Assembly: GCA_951406725.2 (NCBI GenBank)
Contig: OX597828.1
Coordinates: 10,726,001-10,790,000 of the forward strand
Origin: Octopus vulgaris
Taxonomy: Eukaryota
DNA length: 64,000 nucleotides
Direction: 5' to 3'
Positions 18,110 to 35,689 of this stretch are shown in pieces (position 1 is the stretch's first letter; each line of letters begins with the position of its first letter). A program made the translations under genes and the position numbers. The notes under the pieces are model-generated. The model had not been told where the DNA came from, ran no database searches, and saw only the letters and a list, made by a program, of their open reading frames with translations.

Positions 18110-18416
18110 CATATTCTGTTGTGTCTGGGGAGAGTTATTTTTATTTTTGTGCCTTATAATGTAACACACTCACCGGTAAAATTCCCACTTATTTCTTATT
18201 TTTATTTTCCTAAAATTTTCGTTGCGTGCTGCAATCTTTTCAACGAAAATTTTAGGAAAATATAAATAAGAAATAAGTGGAAATTTTACCGGTGAGTGTG
18301 TTACATTATAAGGCACAAAAATAAAATGACTCTCCCCAGACACAACAGAATATGCCTCAACACACGAACTCATATAAAGAATTTTGCAAACCAAATCCCA
18401 AAACGAAGTACATCAT
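18110..18416. mobile_element. PLE-terminus-like repeat (family P3) as a tight fold-back
   Basis: Arms 18110-18224 and 18241-18354 are near-perfect reverse complements with a 16-nt spacer; homologues at 19141-19346 and 40794-40982. Confidence 0.75.
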
Positions 18417-27441: not shown

Positions 27442-27505
<64 letters not shown>

Positions 27506-27510
27506 TGTGT
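27345..27510. repeat. (GT)n microsatellite, left boundary of tandem duplication
   Basis: Directly visible. Confidence 0.95.
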
Positions 27511-30500
27511 GATTGAGTAAGAATTATGAGATGATTTCGCAGAGCAGAAAATATTAGTGTACGACCTTCTGTGAGAAATTCGTATGGTTGAATGTAAAAA
27601 CTTGAAATAACGATAGATTTCTAAAGGGACACATTCTTGAAATCAAAAGCTTTTATCGCTCTTTGATTAATAGTCGAGGTTGTTAACAGTATTTATTATA
27701 CTGGTGCATCGTAACCAAATTTTCCCTTACAGTGTAATTGTTCAGACTGGAATTTTTTTTCAAGAGATACTTGGAAGGGTATTAGAGTGCCCAAGACGAA
27801 ACCTGATAGAAAGAGTGGCGGCTCATATCTAAATTGCTTTGTTTCTTTCACGCAAATGTGTTCTAGTTGAGCAAATCAGTTATCAAAGACGATGCAGTAG
27901 GGATCAATCTGCTGTCAAGTATATCTAGCTCTGAATTATCTAACTTTTGAAGATTGTGAGTTGTTATAGGAAATTGATTCGGGCACTGCTTTAGATGGTG
28001 GCTAAAATAATCATAAGTGTCGGAATGGCAGATTCTTTAAAATGCAGGATGCAATTCCTTTAAATCGGTCGTCTTCGATCTGGGTTCAGATTCTGACGAA
28101 GGAAAAATTTGTGTTTCCTTTCTCCTTCCACAGTCGATAAATATAGTATCAGTCAAAGGCAGTATTTGGTCAATTAATAGAGGGCCAATTCTTAACCCGA
28201 CGCGTACTATTGCTTTAAATGGTAAAAATGGACGAAACATCGCGTGATTTAATTTCTGCTCTCACTTGATAAAAAAAAACATTTCTTTGATTAAAAACTT
28301 TTCTTCTCCGTCGCATCGATAAAAAATTGTGAAGAAACTCAAACTTAATATCCATTTTTTCATTCGCTATTACATAGTATAATTCTTAAATATGAAGTTT
28401 ATTAAAATTAGATAACATATAAAAACCTACCATGATACCACACCAGTTTTAATTCGATAAGTCTTTCAAAGACCAATACAATAATATTTATCCTCACTTT
28501 ATGATTTCAACGTCCATAACTATTGTCTCATTGTCTACAATTTTTAGACATTTGATATATTTCTCTTTATTTTGACAAGAGAATCACTCTTAACATTGCT
28601 ACTTCATAACTAAGAATTCGTTTAAATAAATTTGCTGGCATTTAAAAACAAATTATCATCAGTTTTAGAAAGTAGAAATGCAAAATAGAAAAAATGAAAT
28701 TATTTACATTCACCAATCGTAAATAAAGATATTCAGAAAAATAATCTTTTTGTATTTGATTATAAAAAAAAAATGAAATCTATATATATATAGGTATAAA
28801 GAAATATATACATATGCACATGAATATATGTATGTTTGTGCACCTTTATATACATATATAATCTGTTTCCACTTCACTATTGTCGTAGCTAATCTTGCAA
28901 CATAATTCAGAGGGAAAATAGTGTTTTGATTTCGAAGAGGTTAAAAATGATATTGAATATTTCGTTACTATGAAACCTGAAGATTTTACGCCCAAGGGAT
29001 CAAATTTCCCAAATAAATGTGGTGATGTTATTTATAGGAAGTGGGGACATTATCTTCATTGAATACATCAAGTAAGACCAAAGAACCCTGTCTTGCTTTC
29101 TCGTCTTTATATCCGACTAGACATTCGTTCCAAGCTAATACATACGTTGCTATGAGTAGATCTGTGTTTTATGCAAACGTTTTGCGTTGTAATGCGTGTG
29201 TACGTAGAATACATCAGTCTATTGCCAATCAGTGATTGTCTCCTATTGTTAGGACATACTGAAAAGTGAGAGGACAGAAAGTAAACAACCTTTCAATAAG
29301 AAAATAATTTTCCTACTGTGCATGCCTGCGTTTGTGTGTGAGTGTGTATGAATGTGTGTGTGTGTGTGTGTATGTGTGTGTGTGATTGAGTAAGAATTAT
29401 GAGATGATTTCGCAGAGCAGAAAATATTAGTGTACGACCTTCTGTGAGAAATTCGTATGGTTGAATGTAAAAACTTGAAATAACGATAGATTTCTAAAGG
29501 GACACATTCTTGAAATCAAAAGCTTTTATCGCTCTTTGATTAATAGTCGAGGTTGTTAACAGTATTTATTATACTGGTGCATCGTAACCAAATTTTCCCT
29601 TACAGTGTAATTGTTCAGACTGGAATTTTTTTTCAAGAGATACTTGGAAGGGTATTAGAGTGCCCAAGACGAAACCTGATAGAAAGAGTGGCGGCTCATA
29701 TCTAAATTGCTTTGTTTCTTTCACGCAAATGTGTTCTAGTTGAGCAAATCAGTTATCAAAGACGATGCAGTAGGGATCAATCTGCTGTCAAGTATATCTA
29801 GCTCTGAATTATCTAACTTTTGAAGATTGTGAGTTGTTATAGGAAATTGATTCGGGCACTGCTTTAGATGGTGGCTAAAATAATCATAAGTGTCGGAATG
29901 GCAGATTCTTTAAAATGCAGGATGCAATTCCTTTAAATCGGTCGTCTTCGATCTGGGTTCAGATTCTGACGAAGGAAAAATTTGTGTTTCCTTTCTCCTT
30001 CCACAGTCGATAAATATAGTATCAGTCAAAGGCAGTATTTGGTCAATTAATAGAGGGCCAATTCTTAACCCGACGCGTACTATTGCTTTAAATGGTAAAA
30101 ATGGACGAAACATCGCGTGATTTAATTTCTGCTCTCACTTGATAAAAAAAAAACATTTCTTTGATTAAAAACTTTTCTTCTCCGTCGCATCGATAAAAAA
30201 TTGTGAAGAAACTCAAACTTAATATCCATTTTTTCATTCGCTATTACATAGTATAATTCTTAAATATGAAGTTTATTAAAATTAGATAACATATAAAAAC
30301 CTACCATGATACCACACCAGTTTTAATTCGATAAGTCTTTCAAAGACCAATACAATAATATTTATCCTCACTTTATGATTTCAACGTCCATAACTATTGT
30401 CTCATTGTCTACAATTTTTAGACATTTGATATATTTCTCTTTATTTTGACAAGAGAATCACTCTTAACATTGCTACTTCATAACTAAGAATTCGTTTAAA

Positions 30501-31238
30501 TAAATTTGCTGGCATTTAAAAACAAATTATCATCAGTTTTAGAAAGTAGAAATGCAAAATAGAAAAAATGAAATTATTTACATTCACCAATCGTAAATAA
30601 AGATATTCAGAAAAATAATCTTTTTGTATTTGATTATAAAAAAAAAATGAAATCTATATATATATAGGTATAAAGAAATATATACATATGCACATGAATA
30701 TATGTATGTTTGTGCACCTTTATATACATATATAATCTGTTTCCACTTCACTATTGTCGTAGCTAATCTTGCAACATAATTCAGAGGGAAAATAGTGTTT
30801 TGATTTCGAAGAGGTTAAAAATGATATTGAATATTTCGTTACTATGAAACCTGAAGATTTTACGCCCAAGGGATCAAATTTCCCAAATAAATGTGGTGAT
30901 GTTATTTATAGGAAGTGGGGACATTATCTTCATTGAATACATCAAGTAAGACCAAAGAACCCTGACTTGCTTTCTCGTCTTTATATCCGACTAGACATTC
31001 GTTCCAAGCTAATACATACGTTGCTATGAGTAGATCTGTGTTTTATGCAAACGTTTTGCGTTGTAATGCGTGTGTACGTAGAATACATCAGTCTATTGCC
31101 AATCAGTGATTGTCTCCTATTGTTAGGACATACTGAAAAGTGAGAGGACAGAAAGTAAACAACCTTTCAATAAGAAAATTAAATAATTTTCCTACTGTGC
31201 ATGCCTGCGTTTGTGTGTGAGTGTGTATGAATGTGTGT

Positions 31239-31270
<32 letters not shown>
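27511..31270 (+). repeat. Two-copy near-identical tandem duplication, period 1873 bp
   Basis: GATTGAGTAAGAATTATGAG starts at 27511 and 29384; identical 67-aa ORFs at 28037 and 29910 (offset 1873); both copies end in (GT)n. Confidence 0.95.
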
Positions 31271-31897: not shown

Positions 31898-33620
31898 GTA
31901 TATATTTAAGTATATATTTGTGTGAGTATGTTTCTATGTACATACATAATACATAGACATTTAGACGTATACATTTGAATTTATGTACATATGCATGCAT
32001 CAGTAAATCTGTTTGCTACAATCTTGCCCAAATTTCAGGAAGCCAAGTATTACTGCAAACTTCACACATAAATGACTACTTTCTCTCATTACTTGAAGCA
32101 GTGTCTACGACAGATTTCATTTCCTTCTCTGCTGCAGATATTGCTTTTAGAAAGGAAAGGACTTTATAAAGTCATCACCGTCCAATATGAACATAAAGTA
32201 TGTATGCCATTGATCGCAGCGGTATTAGAAACGGATATACAGAATGCAAAGGCAGCAGCTGAGTTGAGTTGAGAGGATGCCGGACGTCTATGACAGTAGA
32301 TTCCTTAGTTTACGTTCGGTTATTGAACTTGTTTTATTCATGAACATCTGATTTGTGTTATCTAGCAGTATTATAGACAACATTGGTTATGCGCGGATCT
32401 TATTTACAAGCTTGTGTTGAATCTAATATATTCGGTTTCTTTATTATTTGAAATTTAAATATTTTTCAGACGGTTCTTCGGTTGCAGTGACCTCAGTAAA
32501 TTCATCTAATTATTCATCTAATTAACAGATTGAGAGACAAATTTAGTCCACTTGTGATATTTGGGTTGTGTCGCCAAACATCATTTGCAGACTTTAGAAT
32601 ATTTGGATAAAGTATTGAATTCTTCTTTGGATAAAGGAATCAATGACTTGTCAGGCAAAGCTATTCATGCAATTAGTTCAATTAAGTAGGTCATTCCTTG
32701 CAGTGCTCTATATCGACAGCAATTATTTACCATGCACTTCTGTAAAGAAGACGACAGAGGGTTGTATCCTAAAGTATTGAAATTGAAGTTTCTGTAATGT
32801 AATATCTTCGAAAAGAAAAATAACTTTTAAAAGAAAAACATAATAAATTCATAAATCTTACAACTGTATAACTATTGATTTTGCCTTGTTCTCCTGTTTA
32901 ATATGCTTATTCATTTAGAATATAAAGTCATACACATGTTTACACACGCAAACACAAGTATATACATATACATGCGTATATATTATACATATACACATAT
33001 ATATATGTATACGTATTATATATTTGTGCGTGTGTGTGTGTGAGAGAGAGAGAGATAGAGACTTAAATACAGATAATAAAAGAAAGAAGAATGCTAATTC
33101 CAACGGCAACGTATATAATGGTGCTACAAATAAATTATGAAGAGCTAACTCAGAAATTTTGAAGGAAGGTCGCTCAGCAGTTCGGAAGTAGCAATCAAAT
33201 TTCCCTCAGATATCATTGTTTCGAACTACATAGGGCAGGAATGTTTTGCGTAGTCTAAAGAGAAACGGATGTGATAATAGCTTGATAATTCTCATTAATC
33301 AGCGATATGCAGGTATCATCACCACTGAGGAGTGTCCATAGACGTATAACAGTGTTATTGCAATGCAACGCATGATCATTAATTATATATCAAGGAGACA
33401 ATGAAATCTACAATTTTTAGATAAACAAATTATTTCGTTAATTACTTAAACTTCACTTCATGGCTACCATACAAGTTTTCAAGAAATAAACGACAATTTT
33501 ACGAACTTCATAAATTCATAGGCACTAACGATGTCATATATTTAGTGTATATATCATATATAGTACATTATTTACATTATTTAAAATTAACGGATATTTG
33601 ACCCTATATTGTTTGTTGTT

Positions 33621-33666
33621 AACTCAACGTTTTGGCTGATATACTCTCCAGCCTTCATCAGGTGTC
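33621..33666 (-). ncRNA. Minimal type-I hammerhead motif, G12A mutant (probably inactive)
   Basis: GACAC-CUGAUGA-A-GGCUG-loop-CAGCC-AAAA-C-GUU-GAGUU. Confidence 0.6.
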
Positions 33667-33733
33667 TTAGGGAAATTTCGAACCTGTGTTCTTATTCCTA
33701 GGGTATTTTACCATGTTTTTGTTGTTGTTGTTG

Positions 33734-33827
<94 letters not shown>

Positions 33828-33911
33828 CTTTATTAATGTTATTATTATTATTATTCAGGTCACTGCCTGGAATCCAACTCGGAATCTTGGGTTTAGTAGA
33901 AATTTCCTCAA

Positions 33912-33957
33912 GACACCTGATGAAGGCTGGAAGGTATATCAGCCGAAACGTTGTACT
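33912..33957 (+). ncRNA. Minimal type-I hammerhead ribozyme motif with canonical core
   Basis: GACAC-CUGAUGA(33917-33923)-A-GGCUG-GAAGGUAUAU-CAGCC-GAAA(33945-33948)-C-GUU; palindromic AACGUU helix III; stem I eroded in this copy. Confidence 0.7.
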
Positions 33958-34059
33958 AACAGCAAAGAAGATGAGGCCAAATATCCGTCAATTATAAATA
34001 ATGTAAATAATGTACATAATTTCCCACCTCTTAAATATAGAACTGTATTATCATATATA

Positions 34060-34137
<78 letters not shown>

Positions 34138-34358: not shown

Positions 34359-34586
34359 TGTATGCGCTTATTGACTGCGGGATTCGGCCATGGAAAAATT
34401 CCATTAAGACGTCGAGTGTCAAAAACAGTTAAGACCTGTAACCAGGCGAAGCAAATTTCCCTGTAGATGAAGGAAAACGATGGATATCGATATTTTTATG
34501 TTGTTTCAGCTCGTCACCATCTTATAGATGAGCTATTTTGAAACGAATTAGAATAACTGGTCTGAGGTATATAAGCGTAAAATCTA

Positions 34587-34856
34587 CCCGCTGATGTGCA
34601 GTAGGGCTGCGCAACAGAAATAAAATTCAATTTTGAATTCGGATTAGTTCTAATAGTGTAAACATTATCGATGTCACATACTTCAGGCGTGCTTTTTGCT
34701 TATGTACTCATTGGTTGCAGTAGTCGTCTAGGGATCATACAGGTGTACACAAAACGCAAACATTATGTGACATCGGTAATGTTTACATTATTAGAGTTAC
34801 ATCTTATTCGAAATTTAATTTTGATTCTGTGAGCGGCACTGTTGCACATCAGTTGA
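34587..34856. mobile_element. MITE with ~90-bp imperfect terminal inverted repeats, TA-flanked
   Basis: 34591-34680 (CTGATGTGCA...TGTAAACATTATCGATGTCACATA) pairs with 34764-34852 (TATGTGACATCGGTAATGTTTACA...TGCACATCAG); TA at 34585-34586 and 34857-34858. Confidence 0.7.
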
Positions 34857-35689
34857 TATATTCTACACGATCTGAATATGTGTGTGTAAGTGCGTGTGTG
34901 TGTATGCATGCGTATATATATCTATCTATTTGTAGACTTAGTGCTGAAACCATTATAACTAAACTTTCAAGCTTTTTTGCTTTATAATTTTGAATATATA
35001 TATATGTAGGAAAACTAGAAGTTAAAAATGCACTGAGAATAATTAATATATTTTTTATTACTGTCTTTAATGATTTAACCAGTTTCGCAGTTGACACTGA
35101 TTTTCAAGATGTTGAAATAGAAAGACATGGATTATATTGCAACTGTCTTGCTTCTGACTAGTGTTTGAAGCTTTCCCTATTTTTATAGGGAGTTCATGGC
35201 TCAAATTAGCAAATGTTTTGAATAGGATTAGATTGGCAGAGGATAGTTAGATGACTGGTCTTAGAAATTTTTGTAGGTTCCTTGCTACGTCCGTATGTTA
35301 GTATCAAATGACAATGTTTGGCGTCGTAAGTTAAGGTTGACATGGTTGGATGAATAGGTCTAGTGACAGTAGCAAACGATCAATTCTCTGAATGTTTTCT
35401 GTCAAGTCTTTGTAGATAATGAACACTTGATTATGTTGAGAACCTTTTGTACGTTTCCTGCTGCGCCCTTGTTTTAGTGTCACGTAAAAGTATATTTTTG
35501 CGCCAAAAATAATGGCCGACACGATGGACTGAACATGTTTAGTTACAATCGAGGCACTCTAAATTTAATCTGCCAAGTGTGAGAGAGGACAGGAGTCGTT
35601 TGCATGTAGTCCTGTGGCTAAAGTTTATGTTGTTTGCAGTGTAGGTTCTTCACGTTAAGTGGCAGAATGAGTTTTGTGTGCGAATATCT

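Follow-up and report, generated by a model that had tools for sequence, protein, structure and literature searches.

A head-to-head pseudo-LTR pair with a tRNA-derived segment in Octopus vulgaris, probably the remains of a Penelope-type element

Introduction

Penelope-like elements (PLEs) of the Penelope/Poseidon type, which carry an endonuclease (EN+), include PAc of Anolis (PMC11167929), Pen2/Pen2a of Adineta (PMC3846280) and Cercyon of Schistosoma (PMC4209133). The passages of these reports that deal with element structure describe an open reading frame (ORF) for a reverse transcriptase (RT) and, C-terminally, a GIY-YIG endonuclease, a pseudo-long terminal repeat (pseudo-LTR, pLTR) containing the ORF start and a hammerhead ribozyme, a tail of about 30 nt that only one of the two inverted repeats carries, target duplications of around 10 bp, a 5′ palindrome, and opposite-strand hammerhead pairs 100–700 bp apart that stem from truncated copies. 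All of these features are shared by the repeat family described here, one member of which lies in a 64,000-nt stretch of Octopus vulgaris DNA (assembly GCA_951406725.2, contig OX597828.1, positions 10,726,001 to 10,790,000, forward strand; the whole stretch is referred to as the window). The octopus family differs from PAc, Pen2/Pen2a and Cercyon in that it has a tRNA-derived head containing boxes A and B as well as an (AAT)n tract that can expand, and that its sense strand is without TTTT runs; no such head is described in the passages on those three elements.

Partial likenesses to other systems are found in the relevant parts of the corresponding reports. The TRIMp3 elements Cassandra (5S), Helenus (tRNA) and Ajax (PMC10886601) also have a small-RNA-derived RNA polymerase III (Pol III) promoter in a terminal repeat; however, they are non-coding LTR elements that need an integrase partner and possess true LTRs, a primer-binding site, a polypurine tract and duplications of 4–5 bp, whereas the octopus repeat belongs to a protein-coding PLE with duplications of about 7–13 bp, so that the likeness is one of analogy only. 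Short interspersed elements (SINEs) derived from tRNA, such as OK, OR1 and OR2 of octopus and SM-alpha of schistosomes (PMC8490949), share the head with both boxes and the short dispersed copies, and SM-alpha also has a type I hammerhead (PMC8490949). The octopus unit differs from these in that it lacks a 3′ end of the long interspersed element (LINE) type, has a PLE ORF start with two alternative ends as its 3′ part, and carries its microsatellite internally. (OK, OR1 and OR2 are cited in PMC4758252 and PMC10886601.) Animal non-LTR retrozymes (bioRxiv 10.64898/2026.07.22.740005; PMC7229834) share the type I hammerhead and the derivation from PLE pseudo-LTRs, but are defined by head-to-tail tandem units, whereas the octopus copies occur singly or head-to-head, a direct repeat being seen once (L110).

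Non-autonomous hammerhead repeats derived from PLEs are known already (bioRxiv 10.64898/2026.07.22.740005), as are Pol III promoters in the terminal repeats of non-coding TRIMs (PMC10886601). No PLE with a tRNA-derived pseudo-LTR was met in the literature searched; the search did not take in Repbase, Dfam, SINEBase or the octopus SINE paper of 1994, and prior annotation is possible. The family is not mentioned in the passages on octopus repeats in PMC13282606, PMC8967140, PMC4758252, PMC5786205 and PMC8490949.

The locus is considered here to be, more probably than not, a decayed head-to-head pseudo-LTR pair of an RT/GIY-YIG Penelope-type element whose tRNA-derived box A/box B segment is likely to be its Pol III promoter. 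The observations on which this reading is built concern anatomy, linkage, the in-frame tail, the two 3′ ends, target duplications and the 5′ boundary.

Results and Discussion

Anatomy of the insertion

The insertion (ca. 33565–34045) is enclosed by a 13-bp direct repeat, the left and right target-site duplications being identical (33552–33564 and 34049–34061, plus strand). Its inverted arms (33563–33679 and 33899–34015) are 117 nt long and 86% complementary. A tRNA-like segment, an (AAT)n(AAC)n tract, a hammerhead and an inverted arm had been named in the preliminary description of this DNA, and all of them are present. The 117-bp inverted copy of the hammerhead end was likewise recovered, but its extent had to be revised: the right arm reaches 30 nt further, to 34045, and this stretch (34016–34045, plus strand), which only the right arm carries, is the 3′ tail of the family.

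The minus strand carries the 3′ part of the head (33855–33899; positions 38–82, i.e. 45 of 82 nt, by alignment to the family), in which box A is missing and box B (33869–33880) shows one C>G change relative to the family. An (AAT)n(AAC)n tract of 139 nt (33716–33854) follows, and then the tail-less arm (33563–33715, family body positions 1–153 of 183), which comprises a linker, the first Penelope ORF codons with the start codon mutated, the first hammerhead (33621–33666) and an AC-rich region. The second box-B-like motif that had been pointed out, GGTTCGAAAT, does exist (33675–33684, minus strand; family position 32–41), but it sits among the first codons of the Penelope ORF. On the plus strand, a 5′-truncated pseudo-LTR arm (33899–34045, family positions 37–183 by alignment) contains the second hammerhead (33912–33957). 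A hammerhead 14-mer occurs twice in the window (0.20 expected), both times within the arms. With ARAGORN and Rfam, neither the window nor two better copies gave a tRNA call for the head or a hammerhead call for the ribozyme, and both identifications rest on alignment and motif evidence. The window copy is an ordinary dead, decayed insertion.

The repeat family

The genome searched comprised 2.80 Gb in 227 contigs. The tRNA-like head, the (AAT)n/(AAC)n tract, the minimal hammerhead and the AT-rich end form a real family: first-look searches gave 3,544 candidates for the arm and 458 for the head (40 scored each), and one hammerhead 34-mer had 1,690 exact matches (control 0). The copy number was put at about 54,000 arms, an estimate from 2/64 that gives the order of magnitude only. 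Full copies consist of an 82-nt head (box A at 14, box B at 57), the microsatellite and a 183-nt body, so the intact box A that was to be looked for upstream is there; the microsatellite is variable (18–736 nt, median 56, from 54 pure gaps of 67 measured). Head and hammerhead arm had been expected to be linked across copies, and an arm does lie downstream of the head in 25 of 29 head-selected loci; among loci picked by the 34-mer, a head was found upstream in 20/30 and an inverted arm in 18/30. Non-CpG divergence of the copies is 5–7%.

The (AAT)n tracts are themselves entered by other elements. The 3′ ends of LINEs with (AAT)n tails lie inside the tract or replace it at L053, L056, L117, L126, L021 and L039; their translations contain zinc knuckle and restriction-like endonuclease motifs (zf-RVT E 1.3e-6), and they presumably are of the Dong/R4 type. 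The PLE may spread target sites for such LINEs, and is linked to the spread of tracts that other retroelements later entered. A second repeat family ends in (AAT)n directly 5′ of the body at L009, L018, L019, L024 and L192.

Linkage to a Penelope-type ORF

An RT fragment noticed in L113, used as query, drew 6,970 candidates, of which 150 were scored and 30 fetched; L158/L159 and L166/L172 are apparently duplicate pairs. The head begins 23 nt past the stop codon of the RT–GIY-YIG ORF in 22 of these 30 loci and is usually followed by the body; in the remaining 8, homology is lost before the ORF end. A DNA search with the N-terminal region (234 candidates, 30 fetched) returned 11 loci in which the tail continues in frame into the ORF and one further, interrupted locus; three of the 11 have a head upstream, and L193 presents the full ORF-end/pLTR/ORF-start junction. 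Along the element, the ORF stop is followed after 23 nt by the head, then by (AAT)n, the hammerhead-bearing ORF start and the tail.

The 3′ 163 nt of the unit are the start of the Penelope ORF, and since the end of the unit reads in frame into this ORF, the hammerhead is coding sequence. With its hammerhead codons counted in, the ORF N terminus shares 45% identity over 260 aa with P0085, a full-length PLE homolog from another organism, and a 60-codon frame is still open in the majority sequence of the pseudo-LTR. Linkage to both ORF ends together with the N-terminal homology identifies the unit as the pseudo-LTR of an RT/GIY-YIG element. A PLE sharing the arm, as had been asked for, does exist, whereas the separate non-autonomous element originally envisaged is not supported: from its tRNA head onwards, the entire unit forms the terminal repeat of the RT/endonuclease element itself.

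At family level, as opposed to the window copy, the 569-aa natural frame of L248 matched RVT_1 with E 2.7e-6, just under the cut-off, and had 2,923 homologs with PF00078/PF26215. A GIY-YIG motif following the RT was seen by eye, the Pfam match being not significant. The CX2-5CXXC linker before the endonuclease is absent in L248 and its homologs and present in a Neptune-like control, and according to the relevant part of PMC8557442 such absence fits Penelope/Poseidon; the RT tree was run without labelled clade references. Judged by these sequence features, the partner is probably an EN+ PLE of the Penelope/Poseidon type.

Neptune-like families, retrieved by a Pfam GIY-YIG search, were considered as partner and rejected, as they have hammerhead variants of their own and no shared arm. 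One of them (L061–L097, e.g. L091:1445-3790, plus strand) is young, with many open frames of 781 aa, (TA)n targets and a terminal repeat with a U3-A8 variant hammerhead. Protein searches with the 52-aa N terminus gave one repeat-absorbing gene model and short repeat translations and no full PLE, and no relative was found in the viral contigs searched. The gene model P0003 of Octopus sinensis (isoform X2; 89% match) takes its first 38 residues from the pseudo-LTR ORF start, possibly by exonisation or as a prediction artefact. Diverged translations (45–64%) of similar pseudo-LTR starts in the protein library (P0009, P0010, P0016, P0071 and P0075) suggest older subfamilies or other species. At L259 (G000:C2:16238330-16239095), a tandem array with a 150-bp unit, which covers the end of the ORF and the head's first half, is a satellite derived from the ORF-end/head junction.

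Insertion signatures

Among head-to-head pairs, the window included, the last 30 nt are present on exactly one arm in 47 of 48 (50% expected, p 2e-13), or in 42 of 43 when the doubtful L011, L035, L059, L060 and L115 are left out. A flank word of at least 10 nt is common to both sides in 16/48 pairs, as compared with 0.35% of mismatched pairs. Arms within one locus share variants slightly more often than permuted arms (17 shared; 1 of 2000 permutations). Nothing common was found beyond the tail among 67 tailed arms, one local duplicate excepted.

In the parts of the literature that treat these features, Arkhipova 2013 (PMC3846280) describes a 31-bp tail optionally on one inverted pLTR, duplications of 8–10 bp and 5′ palindromes, and Frangieh 2024 (PMC11167929) locates the tail of the lizard element PAc between two internal RT start sites and reports that both target strands are cut and extended in vitro. 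The one-arm tail of the octopus inverted pairs is this published Penelope signature, and the anticipated Penelope-type insertion marks are thus seen both in the family and, with 13 bp duplicated, at the window.

The hammerhead

Judged against the features given for the minimal type I hammerhead in the pertinent part of PMC4209133, the family majority has the complete set: the core, an extra nucleotide after A9, the G10.1–C11.1 pair, a palindromic 15.2–16.2 and a helix I of 4–5 bp. Among 64 unconditioned arms, 24 retain an undamaged core. Damage is present in each window copy: the left one carries G12A and one stem-I mismatch, the right one has an intact core and two stem-I mismatches, and the core put together from both in the preliminary description agrees with the family majority. 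Cervera and de la Pena 2014 (PMC4209133, in part) report that truncated PLEs give rise to minimal hammerhead pairs on opposite strands, with the same features as in the octopus family. The notion of a tandem retrozyme was not borne out; the window pair is head-to-head, and among 89 mapped loci one direct tandem of bodies stands out (L110).

By calculated folding energy the monomer hammerhead had no advantage over alternatives, and these values are uninformative. Two RNA sequencing (RNA-seq) runs, about 6% of each being covered, gave no pile-up of read ends, which such data cannot show reliably, and no end-to-start joint of circular RNA among the best-supported joints listed. For PAc, the passage in PMC11167929 states that hammerhead and ORF start overlap, that cleavage requires protein and that insertion in vitro can do without the ribozyme. 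The octopus genome also has other hammerhead families, which differ in their stems (L104:297, L110:436 and L064:2377, all plus strand).

The tRNA-derived head and transcription

The unusual part of the element is its head, which is tRNA-Arg-like, has boxes A and B, stands at the 5′ end of the element and is absent from 38 related Penelopes; such an arrangement, which likely permits transcription by Pol III, is otherwise known from non-coding parasites such as SINEs. When 30 host tRNA genes of six amino-acid types were compared, tRNA-Arg was closest (z 9.2 and 7.7), and the head aligns colinearly with it after a 6-nt leader. A strict A/B-box regular expression matched only 3/30 heads of the family itself, so that its zero in relatives was discarded in favour of a profile of ten host tRNAs; at 10 bits or more this profile recognised 13/30 family loci, 0/38 related PLE 3′ regions and 0/30 Neptune-like loci. 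Both boxes match the consensus in the family, which thereby has the tRNA-related head of a SINE2.

At its 5′ end the element breaks off sharply 13 nt upstream of box A, a distance that would be expected for a tRNA-type start. TTTT occurs on the sense strand at 0.31 per kb over 72 kb of copies, and no TTTT site is common to more than 11% of copies across 2.36 kb of ORF, a deficit with P ~0.03 by codon-matched expectation and 3e-4 by the rate in 41 composition-matched relatives. In 7.7 kb of overlapping copies, 3 TTTT were observed and 11.6 were obtained under synonymous shuffling. Relatives have 1.13 times their null (74 of 80 analysed; those tested are 29–45% identical, and the closest homologs, P0083–P0089, 53–68% identical, lie outside that set), and Neptune-like elements of the same genome have 16 TTTT in 3.9 kb. 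The boundary and the TTTT deficit hint, on sequence grounds, at Pol III transcription.

Several points weigh against Pol III as the source of the RNA or against the reading as a whole. The head no longer folds as a cloverleaf. The TTTT deficit is modest if the copies are counted as one master (P ~0.03), was first noticed during the analysis, and is accompanied by an absence of GGGG runs; 2 of the 41 composition-matched relatives are also without TTTT, over shorter stretches. No intact full-length ORF was found among the copies seen, which are 5–7% diverged. In 21 pairs the tail-less arm reaches further 5′, in 15 the tailed arm does, and in 11 the two are equal, so that no one simple fold-back model accounts for every pair. 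In the two RNA-seq runs, both strands are covered equally, 85–89% of reads run into unrelated sequence, neither read starts nor read ends pile up, and depth follows the genomic copy gradient, all of which argues for passive read-through transcription; the runs do contain reads joining the ORF end to the head, and are silent on Pol III and cleavage. Uncapped Pol III RNA, moreover, is a poor mRNA, and the protein may come from another transcript. Ribozyme-induced cap-independent translation is described for RNA viruses in part of PMC13725137, but in this family cleavage would take away the first start codon.

A stronger claim, that the entire 2.7-kb RNA of an autonomous element is made by Pol III from a captured tRNA promoter, with a coding strand purged of terminators and a 5′ end that doubles as a SINE-like unit seeding tens of thousands of copies with hammerhead and microsatellite, is less likely than not. 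If true, it would break the usual division between autonomous elements served by RNA polymerase II (Pol II) and SINEs served by Pol III, and would raise the matter of how uncapped RNA is translated.

Somewhat doubtful, in turn, is the alternative that the anatomy is the same but the head a captured relic, with Pol II making the RNA, whether from the pseudo-LTR or through read-through, and with TTTT missing by chance. It would agree with the missing cloverleaf, the T-run P of only ~0.03, the Pol II-type motifs of known PLE pseudo-LTRs (PMC3846280) and the expectation that autonomous partners need Pol II (PMC10886601, PMC5786205), as stated in parts of these sources. It is at odds with the position of the 5′ boundary, with two boxes that match the consensus, and with a T-run deficit that neither the 74 relatives nor the Neptune-like elements of the same genome display.

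Solo copies

Exact 17-mers numbered 2,269 at the head start and 886 at the ORF junction. The first 30 head matches followed the ORF end in 6 cases, adjoined an inverted copy in 18 and another flank in 6, so solo heads exceed ORF-linked heads by about 4:1. Among unselected heads reaching position 7 (n=30), 24 stop within positions 1–7 and 6 run on into the ORF end; at a truncation risk of 5–20% for so short an interval, estimated from the depth gradient in the RNA runs, the probability of 24/30 is below 1e-11. Most solos therefore go back either to RNA whose 5′ end is where the head starts or to strong stopping of the RT at the small hairpin there.

That the solos are a SINE lineage able to propagate itself, with Pol III transcribing dispersed solo copies and the Penelope protein mobilising them in trans, is improbable, although internal initiation would make such a transcript usable whatever flank ends it. 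The excess of solo heads speaks for it, as do the retention of both boxes by the solos and a pseudo-LTR majority without TTTT. Against this, no diagnostic variant separates solo (52) from ORF-linked (40) bodies, the samples being small and differently selected, and a non-coding lineage distinct from its partner, as first proposed, was not recovered; a 3-nt deletion and one CpG change are commoner in the ORF-linked set. The 60-codon frame open in the majority sequence and the lack of anything common past the tail also count against it, and the minimal template of PAc, in the passage that defines it, reaches past the RT start sites (first 172 nt of the ORF), which a solo ending at the tail may lack. 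Chance nesting of an (AAT)n-tailed tRNA SINE with an unrelated, (AAT)n-targeting hammerhead fragment is contradicted, for all that other elements insert into these tracts, by the head lying between ORF stop and hammerhead in the 22 RT loci, by the 25 of 29 heads with an arm downstream and by target duplications that enclose head and arms together, and is scarcely credible.

Proposed mechanism and implications

If the locus is read as a Penelope pseudo-LTR pair with its own promoter, the RNA would begin at the head, likely by Pol III, and the element's own protein would nick AT-rich DNA on both strands. Reverse transcription would start internally at two sites, the tail end and about 30 nt upstream, as in vitro for PAc. 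[quoted passage not shown] The hammerhead may serve as a regulator that depends on dimers or on protein and that insertion does not require, and its cleavage would cut the start codon off the ORF.

Transcription of PLEs and the role of their hammerheads are standing questions in the field. With its defined start site, a candidate promoter whose two boxes can be mutated and a ribozyme just past the start codon, the family makes each of these testable. It also illustrates how “SINEs” can originate as the terminal repeat of a Penelope itself, with consequences for the annotation of repeats in the octopus genome.

Other features of the window

A tandem duplication of about 1.9 kb with 99.2% identity occupies 27454–31263. 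Short MITE-like elements with long terminal inverted arms were observed at 34577–34866, close to the insertion, and at 18110–18354.
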